Shown here: positions 1 through 43,649 of the stretch, in pieces
How positions within the stretch are numbered: position 1 is the stretch's first letter
How the letters are laid out: every line of letters begins with the position of its first letter
Virus record (IMG/VR): IMGVR_UViG_3300014613_000001
Coordinates: 32,001-96,000 of that record
Reading direction: 5' to 3' (one strand)
Origin: a virus
DNA length: 64,000 bases
The notes under the pieces: generated by a model
Told to the model about the DNA's origin: nothing
The model's input: the letters and a program-made list of their open reading frames with translations, nothing else
Database searches by the model: none
Position numbers and translations under genes: made by a program

Positions 1-3000
1 CCCTGTTCGAAGGATCCGATGAGGCTGTGACCTCTGATGAGACAGACGTGACTCTCGACCGCGGTCCTCAGAGCGCCGGCCCGACGACAACCCCCGAGCT
101 CACCGGACAAGAAGAGGACACGGACGAAGAGCCCTCTATTGCTGACTCGAGGTGGAAGCTCTTCTTCTGCGGCGAGATCATGGGCTACCAGTTCGTGAAG
201 AGTGTCGGCCAACGCGCCATCATCCTGACCTGCATGGACCTCAGCGTCATGTGGGACACCTGTTACCAGTACCAGGTCGATGTTGCGAGCTTGCATGGAA
301 ACGGGACGGCCAACTTTGTCGGCGCCGGCACGAACCTCTTCGATACGTTTTTTCAGAGCTCGACCTCGACGCTCGTCGACATCGTGATGCAGCGCTCTCG
401 CGCACGACCCGAGCTCACCGGGCTGTTGAGCGGTATCGTCCACCTGCTCGAGAGGGTCGGAGGGGTCTACAACAACCGGGGCTTCCGTGGGGTCAACGAC
501 TTTTTCACGATGGCCGAGCTGCGTTACCACCTGATCGACATGATCGGTGCGTCAGAGGACGACAACTCGAGCCAGCGGCTCTTCCCACGACAGGCCTTCA
601 ATCGGTGGACACGCGGATCAGGGGGCAGGCTGGGCAAGATCGCCTCCTTCCGTGACATCCTCGGGCTGCTCTGCAAGTTCATCTTCCACAACACGTTCCC
701 GTGCCCGATCGCGTACTACCAGCGGCCTGACACCATAGATCGAACGAGGACGGTGGCGTACTCGTCTACTCAGCAGTTCAGCTCAACCGCTGAGTGGAGG
801 GAGTTGAACGGTCGGATCGACACCCATTGGAGGTCGTTCAACTCGTACGTCGGATCCAATACGCCGATCAGCTCGGGTCGGGTGTCACGTCAGCTCGATT
901 CGTTGGCCACGCAGATCGTGGCAACGAAGGACGCGGTACAACAGCACAGTGCTAGGTACAGCTTGGCATCTGCGACAAATGCTCTCCATCATGCGGGGCA
1001 AGAAGTACGAGCGTTGGCATCCCATCTTAGCCGGGTTGAGGGTGATCCGGAGGGTGGGGACGTGACGTACAGTTCATGGGCTGCCGGCTCCACTCCTGCT
1101 CCCAGGATACAGAGGGCACGTGATGGCTTTCGCACCGCCATCCAGGCACTGCAGGGGGGAAGTCATAGCTCAAGTGGAAATCGGGAGCGCACCGATACGG
1201 TCGTTCGTCATGGCCGGCTCTATTCGCAGATCATCAGGCCGGACATCTTCATGTGCGCCCCTCCATGCTGCAACGTGCTCTTCCCCGAGCTCTACTCCAG
1301 CTTCCAGTTCTCTCGCCAGTACATGCGGGAGGTCACGAGGATGCGTCTGACGGTGTCAGACGAGATTTTCGGGCCTGACGTCTTGCTCAACAGTGTCTAC
1401 TTCGCTCCGGACGTCGAGGTATTGGGCGCGCGCGTCCAGCAGGGGCGCCATGCGCAGGACAATGCAGAGAACGCTACCTTGAGCAGGGCGGCGTACGGCC
1501 GGCGGCTGATGGAGCACGAGCTCTACACCGGACCGATCCCGGTGTTCGAGCGGATGAACGAAGTGAACATCATGGCTGCTCGTGGGGCTCAGACGAACTT
1601 TCGTGGAGCTCGTGTCCCCTACGCCATGCGCGCGGCCCACTTCCAGTTCTACAAAAATCGTTGGTCCTCCCGCTCGATGGCAGTGACGGGGAAGTTCAAC
1701 CCATGGGCGGTCTGTGGTTTCCCGGCAGTGGTCGTCGACCGATACATGAACGAAGAGCAGCTCATCCTCTCCGGTCTCCGAGGCCAGCGATTTCTTGAAG
1801 AGGCGTTCGAGCGGGACTACCCAGGGATCGTGCAGAACGCCGACGACGAGTTCACCTACGACTCCGAGTGGGGTGCTCTCGATGCTTGGGATATCCTGAA
1901 GAACACAGTGCCTACACAGTTCGTAGGTCTGATCATGGGGTTGACCCACCAGATCTCACAGAATTCGGCCAGCACCTCGTACCAGTTCACCGCCTCTCGG
2001 GTCCATCGGGACAACGACGTGCTGCTCGGCGCCAACAGGATCAGGGCCAGTGCCCCTCCGGTACGCAGGGAGCACGTCGGCACGGTTTCCTACACGGCTA
2101 CCGGAACGGGCTCCCGGGCTCAGTCTGATATCCAAGGTCATCTCAACGCGCTCAACCAGTATGCCGGTGCGGAACCGGGGTCGATCGCTGATCTATCGAC
2201 ACGGCTGTCCGTGCTTGCGAGCGGTATTGAGCGAACGAAACGTGCGTTGGAGGGATCGGGAGATCGGGAGCGAAACAATTTGCAGAGTGCGTTCCAGGAT
2301 TTGCACCAGGCCGGCAGATCTGTTCTGACCATGGCGCGTCTTTCTCGAATGAACGATTCTGGCGGCGGTACTTCCTTTGCCTATGAGGTGGATCAGTTTG
2401 ACCGCGCTACGAGCACGGCTCGTAATCGTCTTCAGTCAGCTCTCGATATAGTCCAGGGTGCTTCGAGCAGGAGGAGGAGCGTTGCTGCTGAAGTAGAGGA
2501 GCCGGACGAGATAGACGTCCCTCTCGAAGATTTCATCCGTCCACCGTGGATGGCCGACATCTGGGCTAATGATCGTATCGGCGGGGTGTACCAGCAGTTC
2601 TTCGGGACTGGGGCGATCACTGATCCATCAGTCATTAGCACCGGATATGAGACCGCGGTCGATACAATGGACGCTGCGGCTCAGGATGCCGATGAGGATC
2701 GCCCACTTGAGCCGATTCCATCTGAACTCGGTCTCGGAACTGAGGGTGAGGATCCGGCGCTTCGCCCTTTACCCTCGGATCTCGAGGACCCAGGGTCTCT
2801 GGATCCGATTCGTCAAGATGGTCGTGCAGTCCAGAACGCAGAGATGGGGATCTCTGTTCAGCGCGCCATCGATTTGCTCATCCGCTCTTACAGTGCGATC
2901 AAGGCTCAGGAGGGCATGGACATCAACGAGTTCGTCCGCGCCTACACCTGGAGACCGGTGGCGAACATGACTGACATCCTCGGGGGTCGTGATCTCACGA

Positions 3001-3311
3001 TAGATTCGGACACCGGGGTGGCTACTGGGCAAGAGGGCTTCCACAGTCGAGCTTTCGGCAGCGGCCCCAATGGTAGGAACCTACGGAATCTGCTTCCACC
3101 TGATTCAGAGGGACGTCCTGTGAGACGTATCCTTGGGATCAGTACCGAGAGCAGCTCACGTCTCGAGGACGGCCGAGAGGCAGCTCTATCCGAAGAGGAG
3201 AAGCAGCAGGTCAGTGACGCTCTGGTGCGGCTGGACACGCGCGCGGACAAAGCCGACCGTGTTCTGGACTACGTGTCCGATCTCTGGGCCTCGAGGGGTC
3301 TGCTCGGGTAG
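1..3311 (+). CDS. Large virion structural protein, possibly baseplate hub-like (5' partial; frame is open to the window edge)
   Basis: 1094+ aa ORF, same frame open upstream of position 27; heads the + strand virion module. Product inferred from context only. Confidence 0.45.
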   Translation, partial: LFEGSDEAVTSDETDVTLDRGPQSAGPTTTPELTGQEEDTDEEPSIADSRWKLFFCGEIMGYQFVKSVGQRAIILTCMDLSVMWDTCYQYQVDVASLHGNGTANFVGAGTNLFDTFFQSSTSTLVDIVMQRSRARPELTGLLSGIVHLLERVGGVYNNRGFRGVNDFFTMAELRYHLIDMIGASEDDNSSQRLFPRQAFNRWTRGSGGRLGKIASFRDILGLLCKFIFHNTFPCPIAYYQRPDTIDRTRTVAYSSTQQFSSTAEWRELNGRIDTHWRSFNSYVGSNTPISSGRVSRQLDSLATQIVATKDAVQQHSARYSLASATNALHHAGQEVRALASHLSRVEGDPEGGDVTYSSWAAGSTPAPRIQRARDGFRTAIQALQGGSHSSSGNRERTDTVVRHGRLYSQIIRPDIFMCAPPCCNVLFPELYSSFQFSRQYMREVTRMRLTVSDEIFGPDVLLNSVYFAPDVEVLGARVQQGRHAQDNAENATLSRAAYGRRLMEHELYTGPIPVFERMNEVNIMAARGAQTNFRGARVPYAMRAAHFQFYKNRWSSRSMAVTGKFNPWAVCGFPAVVVDRYMNEEQLILSGLRGQRFLEEAFERDYPGIVQNADDEFTYDSEWGALDAWDILKNTVPTQFVGLIMGLTHQISQNSASTSYQFTASRVHRDNDVLLGANRIRASAPPVRREHVGTVSYTATGTGSRAQSDIQGHLNALNQYAGAEPGSIADLSTRLSVLASGIERTKRALEGSGDRERNNLQSAFQDLHQAGRSVLTMARLSRMNDSGGGTSFAYEVDQFDRATSTARNRLQSALDIVQGASSRRRSVAAEVEEPDEIDVPLEDFIRPPWMADIWANDRIGGVYQQFFGTGAITDPSVISTGYETAVDTMDAAAQDADEDRPLEPIPSELGLGTEGEDPALRPLPSDLEDPGSLDPIRQDGRAVQNAEMGISVQRAIDLLIRSYSAIKAQEGMDINEFVRAYTWRPVANMTDILGGRDLTIDSDTGVATGQEGFHSRAFGSGPNGRNLRNLLPPDSEGRPVRRILGISTESSSRLEDGREAALSEEEKQQVSDALVRLDTRADKADRVLDYVSDLWASRGLLG

Positions 3312-3321
3312 GATGTAGGGG

Positions 3322-6300
3322 ATGGACAAGCCGGCGGCAGGAAAGCAGACGAGCGGTTTCATGAAGTCCCGATCAGGGACCAGGCCCTACCGCGTCGAGA
3401 CGCTGCTCAAGAGAGAGCCCTCCAAGAAGCCGAGTGAGGTGCTCAATCCTCTCAGCAGCGCTGAGAAGAAGTACGCCAAGGCCATGGTGCAAGACGAGGG
3501 TGGCGGGGAGTTCGTCAAGAAGGGGGAAGCCGACCTCAAGAATCAGTGCTTCTTTCGCTCTGCGACGATGGCTGCGCTGAATCCGGAGCTTCGTCTTTTC
3601 AAGGGTCAGCACTCCGGCCAGTCGGCAGGGGACACCGGTCATTTCTATCTGCAGGATCCGGCGGGGAAGGTCATCGACCCGACGGCATCACAGTTCAAGA
3701 CGGGCAGGCTCGTGGATCGCGGGTATGAGGTGTCCGTCGCAAAGAACTTGGATTATGTGATCTCAGATCCACTGTTCAGGACCATGTCGAAGACAGATCA
3801 GACGGCCATTCGATCTCTGCAGAAGAAGGGGGAAGCTGCGGAAGGTAGGGATGCAGTACGTCACGTTCTCATCACCGGACTGCCAGCGGCCGGTAAGACG
3901 ACAGAGGGGAAGAGGCTATCCAAAGAGACGGGAATGCCACTCATCTCGTTGGACGGCTTGCCGAAGTCCTACCAGGGCCCAGGTAAATGGGTACGGACGG
4001 ATGGCGCACGACGTTTGATGTCGGAGCTCGATGAGCCACATATCATCGAGGGAACGCAGCTCTTGGGTCTAAGACCTGATGAGATCAAAGGTCATGACTT
4101 CCATGTGCTCGAACAACCGAAGAACGTCATTATTGATCGCTTGGTCGATCGTGGATGGAAGGATGATCAGGGCAAGCTCCATAAGGGTGAGTCACAGAGG
4201 GGGGCGGCAGGAAAGTTCTACTATGAGCATGAGCGCTGGCTGAAAAACCCAATGAAGAAAACGGCTGCCGTAGACCTCGTTCACCTCCAAGGCGAGGAGG
4301 CACAGAAGTTCGGGCAGCAGTATCCCGATGCCAAGGTGCGGCAACGTGATGTCATCGCCGCGGTCAAGGGCGGCAAGTATATCGGGGGCATAGCTGTGAA
4401 ACCCGGTCCTGATGACTTCACGAAGAAGATCTTTGGCGAGGTCGCGCCTAACCGTCCGTCTTCCGGGCACGTCTCGTACCTCCATGTCGATGACGATCAG
4501 CGGAAGCAGGGGATCGGGCGAGCTCTGCTCAACGAGGCGCTCAAGGGTCGGCCAAACCTGACGCTCGGAACGGATAATCGGGGGGTAAACACCGATGAAT
4601 CTGCGGTTAGGCTATACGAGAAAGCGGGATTTGAGCCACTGAAGAAGGAGACGAGAAGCACCTATTGGATGAAGAAGGAGGGCGAGAATCTTCTTCCCCG
4701 TCCCAACGAGTTCGCTCCCGGCATCCGCAAGGAGCGCCGTATTGAGCCTATTCCCGGGGTCAAAGAGTCAGGGCCAAACACGGCGTGGACCGCCAGCCTC
4801 TCCAAGCATCCGGCCGCTCGGCGGGGTGATCATCTCGATCTGAGGCTCGTCGACGAAAAGGGTCGTGCACACTCATGGGCGCTCAAGGCAATACCCGAGC
4901 CCGGGAAGAGCACCTACGCGGCTCAGATGCCCACGCACTCCGGGAAGTACGCCAAGAAGACGAAGCCCTTTACCATCCCTCTCGGCGTGTATGGAGGCAC
5001 AAGGCCGGGTGCTCAGGTCGAATCGGTGTACGTTCAGCCGGCAGAGGTCATCTCGGCCAATTCGAACAGGGTTCACATTCTTCGTCATCATGGTCAAGAG
5101 ACCGAAGAGCTGGTCATGCGCCGGCTGTCTGCTCCTCAGTTGCCTGGATCTCGGCCCCAAGCTCCGCTGTGGGCCCTCCATAACGCGACGAGGACGCGGG
5201 AGACGAAGGACGGAGGTCTTCTTCCGGATAGCAAGCCCAAGTACCGGGAGCAGACCGTAGACGTGGTCGACTTGGGTGACACCTCCACGATCATGACCCC
5301 GAAGCTCGATGGGGCACACGTCTTGGTGCAGTTTCCAAAGAGCGGGAAGATGCAGCGCGTCTTCTCCTACCGTCCGACCGAGAGAAATGGTGGCCTGATC
5401 GAGCACACCTTCAAGTTCCCCGGCTTCCAAAACAGGAAGACGCCCGAGGGCCTTCAGGGTACAGTGATCAGAGCCGAGGCTTGGGGGACCGGTCCGGACG
5501 GCAAGGCTATCCCGGCTTCCGAGCTCGGAGGTTTGCTCAACTCATCGGTGCCGAGGTCCCGTCGTGATCAAGAGTCTAGAGGTGTGACGTTGCGCCTGAC
5601 AGGACATGATGTAATCCGTCACGGTGGCATGGATTACAGCGCCAAGGGGTTCGAAGATAAGCTCCGCGTCCTCGAGAAGGTTCGCAAGCAGACCAAGGGG
5701 ACGGTGGAAGCTCCCATCACTGCCCGCACCCCAGAAGAAAAGATGAAACTGTTCGAGAGCATAAAAAGTGGAGTGTTTCCGGACACTAAGGAGGGCGTGG
5801 TGCTTCACTCCATGCTCCCTGCCGTTCCCCCCACGAAGGTCAAAATCAAGCAGGACGACGATGTGTACGTCCGAGGTGTCTACAACAAATCGTCGAAGGA
5901 CAGTGCCGCGGGCTTTACCTACTCCCTCGATCCTACGGGGCCGATCGTGGGGCGCGTCGGTACTGGCCTCTCCTCTCAGATGCGACGCGAGATGTCCGAG
6001 GCTCCGGAGAAGTTCGTAGGCAGAGTGGCGAAGGTACAGTCAGCCGGTCGGCACCAACCCCGTGGAGGTGAGCCCGGAGCTCTCGTCGGGTCCCCCGCGT
6101 TCAAGGAGTGGCACATCGACAAGACACCTCCTAAGTTGTTGAAGGAGAGTGCGGTCCGTATCAGCGTGCCGTTGGGGCTCGGGTTCATTTCTGCAGGGAC
6201 GGCTGCCACTCTTCAGTACAAGAAAAAACAGAAGGAGCTCCAGGAGCTGAAGGATCGAAGTCCGATACAGCGTACGGGGGCTGTTTTGGCGAATCGTCTT

Positions 6301-6657
6301 CGACAGGATGTCAGGGGGACGACGGGGGGATTCTCAGAACAGCGTGTGGGGGCTGCTATGGCGGCGCGTCTTCGTGATGAGATCAGAAATACGGTTCGCG
6401 GAGATTTCGCACGTCGTAATCCTGGTCTCTCGAAGAAGGGATCGGAGTTTGAGAAGAATCTCGATCCTATGAACTACCTTCCGTTCGACAGCAAGTACAT
6501 GCAGGTCGCGCTCGACATCGCCGAGACCCGGCCAACTGTGAAATTGCTTGGCAGGACGGTTCGTGGGGTCAGGAGCCAAGCCGGGAATATCAAGGAGTTC
6601 ACGAAGGATAGAGCTGGTGATCTCCAGAGATTCGTCAAGGAGAGGAAAACGAACTGA
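3322..6657 (+). CDS. Multidomain protein: Cys-His-Asp (transglutaminase/papain-like) domain + P-loop kinase + GNAT acetyltransferase + LigD-type 3'-phosphoesterase + ATP-dependent DNA ligase with OB fold + hydrophobic C-terminal tail
   Basis: Motifs: QCFF..GHFYL..VIDPTASQF; ITGLPAAGKTT..SLDG..RLVDR; LHVDDDQRKQGIGRALL..AVRLYEKAGF; H..RRGDHLDLRL..HSWALK..QMPTHSGKY; TPKLDG, EGVVL, KVK, GRVGTGLS. Confidence 0.85.
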   Translation: MDKPAAGKQTSGFMKSRSGTRPYRVETLLKREPSKKPSEVLNPLSSAEKKYAKAMVQDEGGGEFVKKGEADLKNQCFFRSATMAALNPELRLFKGQHSGQSAGDTGHFYLQDPAGKVIDPTASQFKTGRLVDRGYEVSVAKNLDYVISDPLFRTMSKTDQTAIRSLQKKGEAAEGRDAVRHVLITGLPAAGKTTEGKRLSKETGMPLISLDGLPKSYQGPGKWVRTDGARRLMSELDEPHIIEGTQLLGLRPDEIKGHDFHVLEQPKNVIIDRLVDRGWKDDQGKLHKGESQRGAAGKFYYEHERWLKNPMKKTAAVDLVHLQGEEAQKFGQQYPDAKVRQRDVIAAVKGGKYIGGIAVKPGPDDFTKKIFGEVAPNRPSSGHVSYLHVDDDQRKQGIGRALLNEALKGRPNLTLGTDNRGVNTDESAVRLYEKAGFEPLKKETRSTYWMKKEGENLLPRPNEFAPGIRKERRIEPIPGVKESGPNTAWTASLSKHPAARRGDHLDLRLVDEKGRAHSWALKAIPEPGKSTYAAQMPTHSGKYAKKTKPFTIPLGVYGGTRPGAQVESVYVQPAEVISANSNRVHILRHHGQETEELVMRRLSAPQLPGSRPQAPLWALHNATRTRETKDGGLLPDSKPKYREQTVDVVDLGDTSTIMTPKLDGAHVLVQFPKSGKMQRVFSYRPTERNGGLIEHTFKFPGFQNRKTPEGLQGTVIRAEAWGTGPDGKAIPASELGGLLNSSVPRSRRDQESRGVTLRLTGHDVIRHGGMDYSAKGFEDKLRVLEKVRKQTKGTVEAPITARTPEEKMKLFESIKSGVFPDTKEGVVLHSMLPAVPPTKVKIKQDDDVYVRGVYNKSSKDSAAGFTYSLDPTGPIVGRVGTGLSSQMRREMSEAPEKFVGRVAKVQSAGRHQPRGGEPGALVGSPAFKEWHIDKTPPKLLKESAVRISVPLGLGFISAGTAATLQYKKKQKELQELKDRSPIQRTGAVLANRLRQDVRGTTGGFSEQRVGAAMAARLRDEIRNTVRGDFARRNPGLSKKGSEFEKNLDPMNYLPFDSKYMQVALDIAETRPTVKLLGRTVRGVRSQAGNIKEFTKDRAGDLQRFVKERKTN

Positions 6658-7412
6658 TGAACGCTGTCCTCGACTTTCTGCAGGACGAAAAAGACCGAAT
6701 CGAGAAAGAGGCCACTTCTCGTTCGGAGAAGGATCTTGAGCTCTGGCAGCGATGGGATCAGAATGGCCGGCAGGCGGAAGATCTTGATCCGTTGATGAAA
6801 CAGCTCACGCCACTCATACGGAAGCAGACGAACATCTACTCCGGGCACGTGAACATTCCGAAGCCTGCTGTCGAGGCTGAATTCCAGATCCAGGCGATCA
6901 ATGCGTTGCACAAGTACGATCCTAAGAAGGCGGCGCTGAATACCTTCCTCACCCATCAGCTCAAGAAGGGGAAGCGCTTTATCTCGACCTACCAAAACAT
7001 CGGAAGGATCTCTGAGACTCGTATCTACAAGATCAACGAGTTCCAGAACACTCGTGATCTTCTCGCGGACAAGCTCCGTCGTGATCCATCCGCACACGAG
7101 ATCGCCGACGAGATGAAGTGGCCCGTTCGTCAAGTCACGGCCATGGAGCAGGAGATCCGGCGAGATGTCCCGACGTCGACCTTGATCACAGGTGGGATGG
7201 AGGAGATCCGTCCTTCGAAAGAGGGCGAAGTGCTTCGCTTGCTCCAGTATGATTTGGATCCGGAAGAGAAGCTCGTGTACGAGTATCTTCTCGGAGAGAA
7301 CGGCAAGCCGCAGTTGAAGCCCGGGGCGATCGCCACGAAGATGAACATCAACCCCTCGAAGGTTTCTCGTATCAAGGCCAGTATCGCGGCAAAGGCTAGG
7401 AGGTACTCGTGA
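6657..7412 (+). CDS. RNA polymerase sigma-70 family factor (FliA/SigF-like architecture)
   Basis: Region 2-like ALHKYDPKK..FLTH, region 3-like LRRDPSAHEIADEMKWPVRQV, region 4 HTH-like GAIATKMNINPSKVSRIK; start overlaps the upstream stop (TGATG). Confidence 0.85.
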   Translation: MNAVLDFLQDEKDRIEKEATSRSEKDLELWQRWDQNGRQAEDLDPLMKQLTPLIRKQTNIYSGHVNIPKPAVEAEFQIQAINALHKYDPKKAALNTFLTHQLKKGKRFISTYQNIGRISETRIYKINEFQNTRDLLADKLRRDPSAHEIADEMKWPVRQVTAMEQEIRRDVPTSTLITGGMEEIRPSKEGEVLRLLQYDLDPEEKLVYEYLLGENGKPQLKPGAIATKMNINPSKVSRIKASIAAKARRYS

Positions 7413-29790: not shown

Positions 29791-30254
29791 TCTGGTGGCT
29801 CCCACTAGCGCTGGTGCTCCCGTTCTTTTTTCTGTGGTGCGCCGCCCACGAGGGGGCGCACGCTTTGGGAGCCAAACGCGAGGGGTTGGCTATCAGGGCC
29901 TTCAAGCCCTATCCGCATATGATCGGGACCAGGTTCAACTTCGCCGCGGTCTATTACAGCGGCCCGAGCTCCTCGACCTTCACGAAGATCGCACCCTTTG
30001 TTTTCGATCTGATTGCCTTTGCCCCCTTGGCTGTTCTACTCTTTTTCGTGGAGAACGCGTGGATCTGGACAGTGTTGGCGACGTTGGCTGCCTGTCCGGT
30101 GGTCAATTCAATCATCGCTGTCCAGGGTGCAGTCAGGAGGAACGAGCACGCTGATCTGAGCAAAGCTCCTGCAGGCTGGGCCGTGGTGGTAATGTACTTG
30201 ATCCTCTGCTACGCCGCGACGTTCTCCGTTATTGTGTTCTCGAGGTTCTCATGA
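29787..30254 (+). CDS. M50-like intramembrane zinc metalloprotease
   Basis: HEGAH (HExxH) following a TM helix; several TM segments; candidate third ligand D in NEHADL. Confidence 0.55.
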   Translation: MIWWLPLALVLPFFFLWCAAHEGAHALGAKREGLAIRAFKPYPHMIGTRFNFAAVYYSGPSSSTFTKIAPFVFDLIAFAPLAVLLFFVENAWIWTVLATLAACPVVNSIIAVQGAVRRNEHADLSKAPAGWAVVVMYLILCYAATFSVIVFSRFS

Positions 30255-37654: not shown

Positions 37655-38497
37655 TTACACCTTCAGTGCTCCGCGGCTATGCTGCCGCGGTTTGAGCGGA
37701 GGATCACATTCCTCAAAGAATTTACACCATCGGCATGACTTTCCAGGGCTACGCATCGGGATCTTGTACGTCTTCGCCACCTCGAGGATTTTTCTCAACC
37801 GTTGTTCGATCGGGGACCATGTGGCCTGACGGAATGGGACGAGGAAGTTCCTCATGAGCGAGGTGTCTTTGTTGTAGTACAGGATGCACGAGAGTGGAAC
37901 ATCAAGCGCCCACATGTAAGCCAGGGTCTGCTTGACGTAGGAGGAGTTGGGAGTTCGTCGGAGGGAGGAAAAGGCCGACGCCGACGCCGACTTGTAATCG
38001 AAGATCGCGCGAAGGTCGATTACAACCTTTTCTCCGTTGAACTGAAGACGGAGTAGCCGTTCGACATATCCGTCTGTACTTCCGCCAAGATGCAGATCTT
38101 GCGCGTGCTCGCTGTCCTTGGACACTGCGACCTCGTGGTCGTAGAAGAAGCCTTTCCGCTCGGCTAGTGTGTGTTGGTAGTACTGTAGCTGTTCATGGAT
38201 GACCGTCCCTGTGTCAAAGATCAACAGCTTCTGCGCGTTGAGCTTCTCCGTTTCGGGAGCCCCAACCAGTTCGTAGAAGAGAAATCGGTCGCAGGGGTTG
38301 GTCAGCGACGACGGGTGAAACACACAGCTCGTTCGCTGAACACCCCAATCGAGCACCGTTGTGTGGCGCATCGGGTTGTTTCCCAAGTGCCCGACGTGTT
38401 CCTCGATTTCGCTGCACACGTTCCAGCTCAGGAGGATGTCCAGTACACCTGGGTTTGCTTCCAGATCAGCCCGAGTTCGTAGCTTGATTTTTTTCAT
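37655..38497 (-). CDS. Cas4/RecB-like PD-(D/E)xK nuclease with Fe-S cysteines
   Basis: HPSS..PCDR, GTVIHE, GSTDG, FDYKS, QTLAYM, CRWCKFFEEC; GAGGGA RBS before ATG 38497. Confidence 0.8.
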   Translation of the reverse strand: MKKIKLRTRADLEANPGVLDILLSWNVCSEIEEHVGHLGNNPMRHTTVLDWGVQRTSCVFHPSSLTNPCDRFLFYELVGAPETEKLNAQKLLIFDTGTVIHEQLQYYQHTLAERKGFFYDHEVAVSKDSEHAQDLHLGGSTDGYVERLLRLQFNGEKVVIDLRAIFDYKSASASAFSSLRRTPNSSYVKQTLAYMWALDVPLSCILYYNKDTSLMRNFLVPFRQATWSPIEQRLRKILEVAKTYKIPMRSPGKSCRWCKFFEECDPPLKPRQHSRGALKV

Positions 38498-39041
38498 GTA
38501 CTCCCTCGATGAAGTCGCTCCACAGCATGACTGCGAGTTCGGTACCGTCGGATAGGCCAACCTTGATCACGGCTTTGCGCCCCGTCTGTGCTGCCTGGCC
38601 GACTGCTTTTCCAACCGTGGCTCGACTGAGCTTGTATTCCTTTCCTGTTGATCCTTTGTCCTCCACCATCCAGTGCTCGTCTCGAGCATCACCTTTTTCG
38701 GTCCCTGATCCAGAGCCTGGGGTTCGTTTTCCGCAGATCTGTTCTGCGGCAGTACGCTCCCGCTGTTGAGACACTCGTACCTTGCGGCGCCCGGCGCTGG
38801 AGGGTTCGACGTCGATGACATCTCGGATGCGGATGTCGGTTCGGAGCTCGACGTGTGGGTGACCAACGCTCGTATTTCCACGCATCAGGAAGAGACAGAA
38901 CAGACAGCCCACCGCAGTCTTGCGCCTTTTGTCATCCAGTCCGTTGACGGCGACTGTGAGGCTGTACACGTAGCCAGCTCGAGCGCAGACCGGACAGACG
39001 TCAACGGTCTGAACGACCAGGGCTACAGCTTGTGTAGGCAT
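38466..39041 (-). CDS. Zn-ribbon + Hjc-like PD-(D/E)xK endonuclease
   Basis: CPVC..CLFC; QRERTAA..RTPGSG..KGD..VEDK; GGAGG RBS before ATG 39041. Confidence 0.65.
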   Translation of the reverse strand: MPTQAVALVVQTVDVCPVCARAGYVYSLTVAVNGLDDKRRKTAVGCLFCLFLMRGNTSVGHPHVELRTDIRIRDVIDVEPSSAGRRKVRVSQQRERTAAEQICGKRTPGSGSGTEKGDARDEHWMVEDKGSTGKEYKLSRATVGKAVGQAAQTGRKAVIKVGLSDGTELAVMLWSDFIEGVHEKNQATNSG

Positions 39042-41338: not shown

Positions 41339-41962
41339 TTACGCTTTTGCTGCATCCCAGTTGTCGCCGACTCCAGGAGGGGCCCGTAGTGGAACGCGAA
41401 GCGGCAGCCCGGGGTGCTCCATGTGATATCGGATGATCGGGCATGCCTCCTCTACGTTCTCGTCTGGTGCTTCGAACACCAGCTCGTCGTGAATCTGCAG
41501 GAGCAGGTGTACACCGAGTCGTCTGAGCTCTGGATCCTGAGAGCACCGGACCATAGCTATCATCACGATATCAGCGGCGGTGCCTTGTATTTTATGGTTC
41601 CTACCAGCTCTTTCGCCGTCGCGGGAGAGCTTACACTTAGGGCACCAACAGAGCTTCCTCCGTTTGGCCCGAGCTCTTTCGAGGTGTTCTTCACTGTCGT
41701 CCAAACTCATGGTGTCATAGAACCAACGCCGACGTCCGAGGATTGTAGCTACGAATTTGTTCCGCGCGAGTTGCTGGGTCATGTCGGTGATGAACGTTTC
41801 TGCTTCCGGGATGCCGGCGAAGAATTCTTTGATCTTGTCCTGCGCCATGAGCGTTGATTCGCGCATGACGGAGTCGTCACTCCAGTTCGGGTATTCTGCG
41901 CGGACCTGAGCTGGGTATCCGAGGTCAATCCCTAATGACCGTGCCGCTTTACCGTAAATCAG
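41339..41962 (-). CDS. polA: DNA polymerase family A, exon 2
   Basis: Begins LIYG (end of motif B); TILGRRR, IQGTAADI, LLQIHDELVFE (motif C). Confidence 0.9.
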   Translation of the reverse strand: MIYGKAARSLGIDLGYPAQVRAEYPNWSDDSVMRESTLMAQDKIKEFFAGIPEAETFITDMTQQLARNKFVATILGRRRWFYDTMSLDDSEEHLERARAKRRKLCWCPKCKLSRDGERAGRNHKIQGTAADIVMIAMVRCSQDPELRRLGVHLLLQIHDELVFEAPDENVEEACPIIRYHMEHPGLPLRVPLRAPPGVGDNWDAAKA

Positions 41963-42239
41963 CAATTTCGTACACTTAGAACGTGCACTGTTCCCTTGTT
42001 TCCAAGGGCTCTGACTATCCCTTGACTCGTGGTTTGTGGCCTCCGCGAGTCCCCTCCGTGTCAACACTGCTTGCGGCATGACTAGCCCAGCCAATGAACA
42101 TGGCCACAGCGTTGAGTGGGCCCAGGATGGGCTACCACAAGTCGATACACCCTGGCTGGCGCCAGGACACGGGATTGCCTTATGCCGCAGCACTTAGGTT
42201 TCCCCGTTGAGAGGAGGGTTTCTCTTCGGCCTGATGTTG
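41963..42239 (-). mobile_element. Group I self-splicing intron (IA-like, no homing endonuclease ORF), 277 nt
   Basis: Exon ends in U and intron ends in G. Pairings: P1 CUUCGGU/GCCGAAG, P10 AUCAG/CUGAU, P3 CCCUCC/GGAGGG, P4 ACGGG/CCCGU, P6a CCUGGC/GCCAGG, P7 GACU/AGUC, P8 GACUCG/CGAGUC, P9 CCCUUG-GAAA-CAAGGG. Removal restores KNIGFG-LIYG in frame. Confidence 0.93.
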
Positions 42240-43649
42240 ACCGAAGCCAATGTTCTTGATCGCGTCCCGGAGAGCCTTCAGGTATTTCTGCCGAGGTGTC
42301 CGCTGATCCCCCGGCGTCTTTTTGGCAGCTGCAACCTCGTCATATGGCTCGAGGTAGACCAGTTCGACGTTCGCGGTGTGGATGTCTCTGCCGCTTTTGG
42401 CAGCTTCGATGAGACCCTCGGCTCCGCTGAAATGCCCGAGGACGTACATCTCGAGCTGATCATAGTCGGCGACGATCAGCTTGTATCCTGGGGTGGCAAT
42501 GAACGCTTTTCGGATATCAAAAAGTGCAGAACCAGAACGAGTCTGATTTTGCAAATTCGGATCCGATGAGCTCAAACGTGCCGTGTCCGCGACATGCTGA
42601 TTGAAGGTTGTGTGGACGCGCCCGTTGACGGCCCGTGCCATCAGGCCGTCGATGTAGGTGCCAATGAGCTTGGACAAACCACGATGTTGAAGAATGAGGT
42701 CCGCGGCTTCGACGCCCTCGTCTCGAAGCTGCTTCAGCACCGACTTTTGTGTCGATGGCTTCTTTACGCCCGTCGAGCCTCCGGAGGTTTTCTTGATGGG
42801 TTCAATCTCGAGCTGATCAAACAAGAGACGAGCTAGCTGCGGGCCCGAGTTTGGGTTGATCTCCCAGCCGGCGATCTTGTTCAGCTTTGCCCCGATCTCG
42901 TTGATCTTTTGTTGCACACCGGGACGGATTTCAGAGAGGTAGTTCGTGTCCAGGAGAATCCCGCGCCGCTCCATCTCGAAGAGGACGCGTGTCATCGGTA
43001 CTTCCCAGCGTAGGAATACGTCCCAGAGCGTGTCTCCATACTCAGTCTCGATGAGCTGAAGGTGTCCAGCAAGTCGGTAGAAGAGTCGGAAGACGGCCCA
43101 GGCGTCCAGGCTCGCATAGTCGATAACGCGGTTAGGATCGCTCTCAAACCGCTCTAGAAGGATCTCGTACATCTCTTTGTTTTTTGGCTTGATCAACTTC
43201 CCCGTGGTTCCCTGCGGGTAGAATGTCTCCTTGAAGCCCATCATGATTTCGTTGAACTCTCTTGTGTATGCCTCTTTCAGTCCGTGCCCACGACCCGGGT
43301 CGATCAGTCGATCCATGGTCAGCGTGCACATGAGATCACCGCGAAGTTCGATACCGCAGTTCGCTAAGATGTTGGCGTCGTACTTGATCTGGCTTCCGAT
43401 CCATGCCTTTGTGGGGTCCTCGAGCACGGCTTTGAAGTTCCAAAGTCGATCTCGCTTCAAAAAGTAGCGGTCCTCGCCCGTAGAGAGCGACCAGAAGACG
43501 ACTCGGTCTCGAGCAATGTCGAGGCCTGTCGTCTCTGTGTCAACAGCGAGCAGGTCATGGTGTACCAAGAGCTCCTTCAGCCTGCTCTCTGCCCTGTCCG
43601 TATTGACGTATACTGGCACTGGCCTGTCTAATGTCCACTCTGCGTGCAC
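42240..43649 (-). CDS. polA: DNA polymerase family A, exon 1 (3'-5' exonuclease + polymerase; no 5'-3' exonuclease domain)
   Basis: AVDTETTGL, YASLDA, TARLSSSDPNLQN, ADYDQLE (motif A), DIH, KNIGFG; GGAGG RBS + GTG. Confidence 0.92.

Follow-up and report, generated by a model that had tools for sequence, protein, structure and literature searches.

A predicted polyvalent phage protein built on a LigD-type phosphoesterase and DNA ligase core

The window analyzed here, a stretch of 64,000 nucleotides, corresponds to bases 32001-96000 of IMG/VR record IMGVR_UViG_3300014613_000001, a complete 177,773-bp phage genome with direct terminal repeats. On its plus strand, positions 3322..6657 form a single unbroken open reading frame (ORF) of 3,336 nt that encodes a protein of 1,111 aa. 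A first-pass annotation, made from the sequence alone, had described this protein as an all-in-one heal-and-seal enzyme in which a 5′-kinase-like domain, a LigD-type 3′-phosphoesterase (PE), and an ATP-dependent ligase are joined to GNAT and Cys-His-Asp domains. All of the named domains are present in the one ORF, as judged from Pfam searches, a family profile, conserved residues, and AlphaFold2 models (Table 1). From its sequence, the protein is predicted to have the architecture of a delivered multi-effector, or polyvalent, protein.

Table 1. Features of the polyvalent gene and of neighboring and replication genes. Coordinates are positions in the window.
Feature	Coordinates	Strand	Description
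N-terminal leader, aa 1-68	3322..3525	+	block GFMKSRSGTRPYRVETLL, then ..GGGEF-VKKG
Cys-His-Asp domain, aa 69-170	3526..3831	+	putatively papain/transglutaminase-like; C76, H107, D119
P-loop kinase domain, aa 171-315	3832..4266	+	GLPAAGKTT 186-194, D211, E243, R274/R278
GNAT acetyltransferase, aa 316-454	4267..4683	+	Pfam and PHROG matches, RKQGIG
LigD-type 3′-phosphoesterase (PE), aa 455-628	4684..5205	+	includes the conserved EFAPGI N-peptide
ATP-dependent ligase adenylation (nucleotidyltransferase) domain, aa 629-845	5206..5856	+	K661 in KLDG
Ligase OB domain, aa 846-938	5857..6135	+	ends in motif-VI-like WHIDK
C-terminal tail, aa 939-1111	6136..6657	+	LLKES, Gly-zipper-like hydrophobic stretch aa 944-962, basic region net +16
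Junction motif 1, FVKKG, aa 64-68	3511..3525	+	leader / Cys-His-Asp linker
Junction motif 2, LQKKG, aa 166-170	3817..3831	+	Cys-His-Asp / kinase linker
Junction motif 3, MKKTA, aa 311-315	4252..4266	+	kinase / GNAT linker
Junction motif 4, MKKEG, aa 450-454	4669..4683	+	GNAT / core linker
Junction motif 5, LLKES, aa 939-943	6136..6150	+	core / tail linker
Upstream conserved gene	1..3311 (genome start 31673, before the window)	+	1,212 aa; no Pfam or PHROG match
Sigma-70-like factor	6657..7412	+	Sigma70_r3, E = 2.8e-7; PHROG 351
Cas4-domain/PD-(D/E)xK exonuclease	37655-38560	-	PHROG 1706/1990, E = 1e-22; adjoins UvsX-like recombinase
Family-A DNA polymerase	41339-43649	-	two adjoining ORFs, 489 aa + 284 aa

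The GNAT domain matched three Pfam models (Acetyltransf_10/7/1) above their curated cut-offs at aa 340-445, with E-values from 7e-11 to 6e-8 (PF13673, 42.6 bits against a cut-off of 23.6; PF13508, 39.0 bits; PF00583, 33.4 bits). A PHROG acetyltransferase profile matched as well, and the acetyl-CoA motif (R/Q-x-x-G-x-G/A) is represented by aa 394-399. The three residues that name the Cys-His-Asp domain are conserved in the relatives P0049, P0060, and P0076, with which it shares the Cys and the motifs DTxHF[YW] and GKVxDPT. Its AlphaFold2 model (pLDDT 78, built on 4 sequences) has a helix followed by a sheet, with the Cys at the start of helix 1 and the His and Asp on the sheet. A Foldseek search of this model gave no match at E ≤ 0.001, and the matches obtained with VIA-align were weak: the pseudomurein endoisopeptidases PeiP/PeiW (Z 4.5/4.4), LapG (3.6), arylamine N-acetyltransferase (3.5), and, at a Z of about 3, C39, staphopain, and NlpC/P60, so that papain/transglutaminase-type cysteine peptidases dominate the list. 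The C-terminal tail holds the most hydrophobic 19-aa window of the protein. It gave no match when compared with families and the protein atlas, and its aa 1047-1097 are held in common with P0057 only; a small-xxx-small run after the core was present in 13 of 75 homologs, against 3% in the background.

The phosphoesterase-ligase core and its family

A direct Pfam scan of the 1,111-aa protein detected neither the PE nor the ligase. Aligning aa 455-950 with 31 stand-alone relatives gave a profile of 32 members that, compared with the PDB, matched both PE domains (3p4h, E = 2e-26; 3p43, 8e-22; the Pseudomonas aeruginosa LigD PE 3n9b, 5e-15) and ATP-dependent DNA ligases (4eq5, E = 3e-9; 2cfm, 5e-9; the OB domain of the Chlorella virus ligase, 2e-5). 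Homologs carry PF13298, PF01068, and PF14743, with PF13298 matched directly in 28 of the 50 family members sampled, and the OB domain of the present protein matched PHROG 114, an ATP-dependent DNA ligase, at aa 839-940. Six residues are essential in CkoPE, H9, H15, and D17 for metal binding and R19, H51, and Y55 for phosphate binding (PMC3258152). Their counterparts here are H496, H504, D506, R508, H539, and Y543; across the 32 aligned members the first five are invariant and Y543 is kept in at least 90%. The ligase residues are equally well represented (K661, R717/E719, E824-G825, K839/K841, D847, and H931/K934). Most residues of motifs I, III, IV, and V are invariant in the family and the remainder are kept in at least 90%, while the end of the OB domain, WHIDK, resembles the RxDK of motif VI, and LVGSPAF stands where most members have LRAPxF. 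Judged by these active-site residues, both the end-cleaning PE and the sealing ligase are predicted to be catalytically intact, and the family profile bears out the first-pass assignment of a LigD PE domain followed by an adenylation/OB ligase.

As in bacterial LigD, for example that of P. aeruginosa (PE-LIG-POL), a PE with the same six essential residues lies directly N-terminal to an ATP-dependent ligase, and by analogy the chemistry should be LigD-like, with 3′-end healing followed by sealing. Unlike LigD, the ORF contains no primase-polymerase (POL) domain when its full length is compared with Pfam at E ≤ 1, and Ku (PF02735), sought at the same threshold in the complete phage genome, was not found. 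The ligase is of the minimal nucleotidyltransferase plus OB kind (Chlorella virus/PF14743 type), and the whole is phage-borne, fused to unrelated effectors, and furnished with a leader and junction motifs.

A different use of this chemistry would be RNA repair, for example of tRNAs cut by host anticodon nucleases, in the manner of T4 Pnkp/Rnl1 or bacterial Pnkp/Hen1. Ends with a 3′-phosphate and a 5′-OH, on which such a module would act, are the typical products of metal-independent RNases. Some family members have weak matches to RNA_ligase (PF09414, E = 8.5e-5), and PE enzymes act on 3′-ribonucleotide ends (PMC3258152). Set against this, the ligase belongs with the DNA ligases: it has an OB domain that ends in a motif-VI-like sequence, and its profile matches include DNA ligases at E = 3e-9. 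Homologs fit PF01068/PF14743 far better than RNA-ligase families, and the characterized PE enzymes work in the healing of DNA double-strand-break ends (PMC3258152). We regard an RNA repair role as improbable.

An exhaustive profile-free search recovered 1,097 clusters at 50% identity with E ≤ 1e-3, and 529 with E ≤ 1e-30. What these clusters share is aa 462-942 only, in proteins of 440-1,680 aa, and the sequence relationships indicate that the PE-ligase core defines a large metagenomic phage protein family. Among 120 proteins with both core boundaries, 28 consist of little more than the bare core, 50 have an N-terminal extension of more than 60 aa, and 73 a C-terminal one of more than 60 aa. 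The extensions contain SNF2, NUDIX, HD, UDG, SET, GNAT, InPase, and 2H-SAK domains, C92/NlpC/M15 peptidases, Hint domains, inteins, and kinases; kinase and GNAT domains occur on either side of the core. P0002, for instance, is a GNAT-core protein collinear with aa 302-942 at 62%, and P0012 has the order leader-kinase-core. When the whole protein and the core were compared by tblastn with 50,697 GenBank phage records, no match was found, and the stand-alone member P0091 retrieved from the same records remote matches to ordinary phage ligases with no PE fusion. The family therefore marks an unexplored phage lineage. Its only match labeled as a genome was a 174-kb contig within a Desulfatibacillum metagenome-assembled genome (MAG).

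Several side observations concern the core. A Hint/intein with a LAGLIDADG endonuclease lies within or beside it in 2 of 50 sampled members (P0035, P0043, P0177, and others), and in P0035 the core is split, with query aa 464-668 and 675-936 mapping about 270 residues apart. In P0045 (953 aa, on a 212,835-bp contig of a related large phage), the precomputed Pfam list gives an RNA polymerase Rpb1 domain 2 (PF00623) together with the LigD PE, a pairing that could link the PE module to a phage RNA polymerase.

Polyvalent proteins, as defined by Iyer, Burroughs, Anand, de Souza, and Aravind in 2017, carry 2-15 conflict-type domains, are encoded by phages and conjugative elements, and are predicted to be packaged and injected (PMC5512222). 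The protein studied here would fit that definition, with at least five catalytic domains and with domain sets and orders that vary across its family. Like polyvalent proteins, it combines many conflict-related enzyme domains in one polypeptide, which are shuffled among homologs and encoded near virion genes of a phage, and family members bear the signature InPase, SNF2, GNAT, 2H, and peptidase domains. Unlike them, it has a constant PE plus DNA-ligase unit and a dedicated leader, and a K-x-A/G/S motif punctuates its modules. The text of PMC5512222 contains no LigD or 3′-phosphoesterase, and ligases appear there only as ATP-grasp RNA ligases, which were not found associated. A jumbo-phage survey makes no mention of LigD or its phosphoesterase, and we found no description of a virion or phage LigD-type PE in the literature.

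The kinase and its relation to the core

The P-loop, Asp, and RxxxR elements on which the first-pass annotation had based a T4 Pnk-type assignment are present: 8 homologs conserve GLPAAGKT (aa 186-193), the R274-x3-R278 lid, and D211, which in the model follows directly on strand 2. They are not specific to T4 Pnk, however, because they are common to the whole nucleoside monophosphate (NMP) kinase fold. By sequence, AAA_18 matched aa 182-284 just below its cut-off (28.9 bits against 29.4; E = 1.8e-6). The best PDB match was AK6/hCINAP (E = 3.5e-4 with the single protein and 1e-4 with a profile), no polynucleotide kinase appeared among the PDB sequence or profile matches at E ≤ 1, and the protein atlas returned generic P-loop kinase neighbors only. 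The AlphaFold2 check proposed in the annotation returned an NMP-kinase fold (pLDDT 87) and scored T4 Pnk at Z 8.2/7.8, with nicotinamide riboside kinase NRK1 ahead at 9.7. Shikimate, gluconate, and uridine kinases scored 8.7-8.9, hCINAP 8.3, Pnkp1 8.0, and the Trl1 kinase 7.1, so that, in the model, the fold ranking is effectively a tie of many small-molecule kinases and Pnk. On the sequence matches, the kinase appears nearest to AK6/AAA_18 and is not callable as T4 Pnk-type.

A kinase is found in about 15 of 185 family members (∼8%). In six of these (P0004, P0012, P0158, P0084, P0116, and P0177), a P-loop kinase lies directly against the PE-ligase core, N-terminal to it in some and C-terminal in others. 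Two types are represented, one AAA_18-like, as here, and one AAA_33-like with the sequence HSDxYA. This offers some support, at the level of domain arrangement, for a functional link between kinase, PE, and ligase. In the present protein, the GNAT domain is interposed between kinase and core, the order Cys-His-Asp/kinase/GNAT is repeated in P0076, and GNAT and kinase occur together in P0195, which lacks the core; a search of viral contigs for related loci with the kinase/Cys-His-Asp region found nothing. Given its repeated association with the Cys-His-Asp and GNAT domains, the kinase may be part of a distinct effector cassette.

The kinase may therefore be an AK6-like NTPase or a nucleotide or small-molecule kinase that is part of such a cassette, rather than a polynucleotide 5′-kinase. 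Its target could be, for example, a host protein, a nucleotide signal, or an antibiotic-like small molecule, and the protein would then consist of a PE, a ligase, and unrelated effectors, with no complete heal-and-seal triad. The leading positions of AK6/hCINAP by sequence and of NRK1 by fold, the lack of any Pnk at E ≤ 1, the recurrence with GNAT in P0076 and the coreless P0195, the interposed GNAT domain, and the small share of kinase-bearing members all favor this possibility. On the other side, T4 Pnk, Pnkp1, and Trl1 are about 1.5-2.6 Z below the top and about 1 Z from the group at Z 8-9, the placement of D211 behind strand 2 and the RxxxR lid are compatible with an active site like that of Pnk, and a functional kinase-core link is hard to dismiss because two kinase types adjoin the core in six other members, on either side. 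We put a non-polynucleotide kinase at slightly less than an even chance; it would be compatible both with a packaged kit and with a ligase that stays in the cytoplasm.

The T4 Pnkp + Rnl1/Rnl2 pair, bacterial Pnkp-Hen1, and fungal and plant Trl1 follow the same logic of 5′-kinase, 3′-phosphoesterase, and ligase in the service of counter-defense. The present protein differs in that its phosphoesterase is a LigD PE and not of the HAD, calcineurin, or 2H type, its ligase is of the DNA type and not an Rnl, and its kinase is not demonstrably Pnk-type. These known systems are made after infection and are not packaged.

Genomic setting

The start of the sigma-70-like gene overlaps the stop codon of the ORF (TGATG), and genes of Big_2, Baseplate_J-like, and tail-fiber-like proteins lie further downstream in the same block on the plus strand. 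The products of the upstream genes (1,223, 431, and 1,212 aa, and others), three large proteins among them, and of several downstream genes have no PHROG or Pfam match. The gene had been placed in a virion module, away from the replication operon. The second half of this placement is borne out, since the replication module occupies the minus strand at 37-54 kb and comprises DnaB-primase, PolA (two ORFs), UvsX, a helicase, and a Cas4-like exonuclease, with no ligase. The virion label stands in part: it rests on the Big_2, Baseplate_J-like, and tail-fiber matches downstream, while the upstream genes are unrecognized, and it means here a position adjoining tail and baseplate genes, not amid head genes. 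Within the replication module, the two polymerase ORFs match consecutive positions of the PHROG 17 profile (658-1071 and 1082-1230).

We compared the gene neighborhoods of five relatives. The order upstream gene/polyvalent gene/sigma/orf68/orf152 is kept in L002, L004, L005, and L007; L002, L004, and L007 have a homolog of the upstream gene (about 1,140 aa and about 50% identical) ahead of the polyvalent gene, and none was seen in L005. The syntenic polyvalent genes can be aligned over the leader (aa 1-70) and the core (aa 450-945) only, the stretch between the two being wholly different, and their products measure 788, 1,461, and 1,546/1,560 aa. The polyvalent locus is thus a fixed position with a swappable middle cassette. 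The translationally coupled sigma-70-like factor is about 61-63% identical in four syntenic relatives. L007 (CAZNAX010000001.1, 173,992 bp), in which the core is 63% identical and the gene order is kept, was deposited in the MAG labeled uncultured Desulfatibacillum sp.; this phage-sized contig probably represents a phage genome that was grouped with bacterial sequence in binning, and the label is not to be taken as a host assignment.

The conserved neighborhood also bears on whether the union of five enzymes in one frame could be an artifact, either a chimeric assembly or separate genes read through; the first-pass annotation had named a chimera as an outcome that would undo its reading. In favor of an artifact, the exact domain order at high full-length identity occurs in no other database protein. 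The frame is nevertheless open over its whole length within a complete genome with terminal repeats, synteny is kept on both sides, the linker motif of the family stands at all junctions, and the junctions are seen independently in P0002 (GNAT-core), P0012 (leader-kinase-core), and P0076 (Cys-His-Asp-kinase-GNAT). We rejected the chimera, which is most improbable.

Profile searches of the whole genome for a second DNA ligase (PF01068, PF01653) or an RNA ligase (PF09414) found none. The protein could thus simply be the replicative and repair ligase of the phage: a cytoplasmic, unprocessed multifunctional enzyme that serves Okazaki joining, recombination, and repair as the only DNA ligase, with accessory domains fused to it. 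The lack of a ligase in the replication module is in keeping with this. Less easily accommodated are the position of the gene on the opposite strand and outside that module, the hypervariable middle cassette at a fixed locus, and the host-directed or cell-wall domains of the family (SET, GNAT, NlpC/C92/M15, InPase), which are ill-suited to a replisome ligase.

Leader, junction motif, and predicted delivery

The leader is found in more than 30 family proteins with differing cargo domains and is always N-terminal; no paralog of it was found in this phage. It consists of two blocks, GGFMQxRxGTRPYRVETLL and FExSLA..GEEF-x-K-x-S/A, and in about half of the leader-bearing proteins it ends in EF-x-K-x-[S/A/G]. 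The start of the leader, here (positions 3322-3336) and in more than 20 homologs, reads M-[D/E/K]-K-x-[A/G] (MDKPA, MEKLA, MKKQA, and so on), and residues 1-5 also fit the pattern hydrophobic-x-K-x-[AGS].

This pattern, hydrophobic-x-K-x-[A/G/S], is found at all five linkers of the protein (Table 1), and five of its ten sites fall within 7% of the residues (P = 4e-4, with windows chosen post hoc). To test the pattern on data independent of this genome, we turned to family members encoded by other phages. The motif occurred within 20 aa before the EFAPGIP of the core in 69 of 109 proteins (63%) and within 20 aa after WHxDK in 80 of 139 (58%), compared with 8-9% of background windows. Shuffling within windows gave 12.2 ± 3.2 on the N-side, where 62 of 109 were observed in a slightly narrower window, and 14.1 ± 3.3 on the C-side, where 80 of 139 were observed; the reversed motif and the R and E variants were not enriched or far less so. 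Because neither shuffles nor variants reproduce the enrichment, the boundary signal is not one of composition. Among distant representatives of 50% clusters, none of them more than 44% identical to the query, the motif was present in 37 of 70 against 7.5 expected and in 40 of 96 against 10.1. The boundary enrichment corresponds to a z of about 10-20, a value that overstates independence because the family sequences are related. In seven annotated multi-domain homologs, 32 of 41 sites lay in linkers or unannotated stretches, which make up 29% of the sequence (P = 1.5e-10), and 32 of 49 members with an N-terminal core open with a short tag (LEKIA, LVKIA, LRKLA, FKLA, and others) right before the core. 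The junction motif is thus ordered and boundary-specific across the family.

Further copies were noted in other settings. The sigma-70-like factor carries one (RIEKEA) at its N-terminus. The peptide F-x-DEL-x-K-I-A occurs in one or more internal copies after the core in many distant members (P0121, P0124, P0133, P0141, P0148, and P0159, among others), 19 of 120 when the strict pattern is applied, and the same peptide opens small proteins of this phage at window positions 30251 and 31056. Within the phage, the motif excess peaks in ORFs at 86-112 kb of the genome; the 1,111-aa protein ranks 5th of 217, and its neighbors in the tail block have few or almost no sites. Self-cutting by the Cys-His-Asp domain was rejected as a general explanation, as most motif-bearing members lack that domain.

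T4 internal proteins and Alt carry an N-terminal capsid-targeting sequence, are trimmed by the gp21 head protease, and are injected with the DNA (PMC5512222). The protein described here may resemble them in having an N-terminal signal, head-protease trimming, and injection. It differs in its motif, hydrophobic-x-K-x-[A/G/S] compared with L/I-x-E in T4, in its leader of about 65 aa, and in having sites between domains as well, which would imply polyprotein processing; the gene of a protease was not identified.

The leader and the boundary-enriched motif fit capsid loading and proteolytic processing, and we infer a modular polyvalent cargo of this uncultured tailed phage, a capsid-loaded, protease-cut, and co-injected repair kit with swappable effectors, to which we give an even chance. 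In this scheme, the leader would direct the polyprotein into the assembling head, a head-maturation protease would cut it at K-x-A/G/S sites to free the individual enzymes, and these would leave the capsid together with the DNA. In the cell, the PE would strip 3′-phosphates or 3′-ribonucleotides, and the ligase, possibly pre-adenylated, would seal nicks or breaks in the phage DNA as it enters. The least certain step is the provision of 5′-phosphates, which may fall to the kinase, and the Cys-His-Asp, kinase, and GNAT domains would form an interchangeable set of effectors directed at the host. Packaging, cleavage, and ejection, as well as the choice between DNA and RNA substrates, are all predictions from the sequence.

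Several points weigh against this proposal. The head proteases PF04586 (Peptidase_S78) and PF03420 (S77), sought in the phage, were not found, in a genome so divergent that most Pfam and PHROG models fail on it. The gene lies beside tail genes and far from the motif-rich ORFs at 86-112 kb, and its immediate upstream neighbors have no recognizable function. The motif total of this protein, 10 sites against 6.1 in shuffles, is not significant (P = 0.08); its linker windows were set after inspection of the sequence, and the z-scores are subject to the relatedness noted above. The kinase shows no specific likeness to Pnk, about 92% of family members lack one, and no other DNA ligase is recognizable in the phage. 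The last point, the missing head protease, and the motif total also favor a cytoplasmic ligase, in which case K-x-A/G/S might characterize linkers or serve in binding, with no connection to the loading of capsids. The ordered, boundary-specific, and non-compositional nature of the motif and the N-terminal tag of stand-alone family members speak against the cytoplasmic ligase, which we hold to be unlikely overall.

The injected heal-and-seal counter-defense that the first-pass annotation had proposed is thus supported in part: the intact PE and ligase residues, the position outside the replication module, the polyvalent architecture, the leader, and the junction motif lend it substance, whereas the kinase is not specifically Pnk-like and injection is a prediction. 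A wider proposal, which we advance tentatively and consider somewhat doubtful when taken as a whole, is that an uncultured lineage of large phages packs PE and ligase, sometimes with a kinase, in the capsid by means of a leader or tag, which a head protease with a new K-x-A/G/S specificity would then remove. The enzyme would arrive with the genome and mend nuclease damage before phage gene expression, as an injected counter-defense beside a hypervariable effector cassette at a fixed locus.

Polyvalent injected proteins and LigD-type end healing and sealing are already known. What appears to be undescribed is a very large phage protein family whose constant module is a PE plus DNA-ligase core, the joining of this core to kinases in some members, and the system of leader and junction motif. 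The compact core (about 480 aa) and its kinase-bearing versions are possible end-repair reagents. The boundary motif amounts to a testable prediction of a new head-protease specificity and to an easy sequence criterion by which packaged proteins of these phages could be sought. If the delivery proposal is true, DNA repair enzymes would join RNA polymerases, ADP-ribosyltransferases, and anti-restriction proteins as phage-injected cargo, and the resealing of restriction or CRISPR cuts at entry would be a route of defense evasion so far undescribed.

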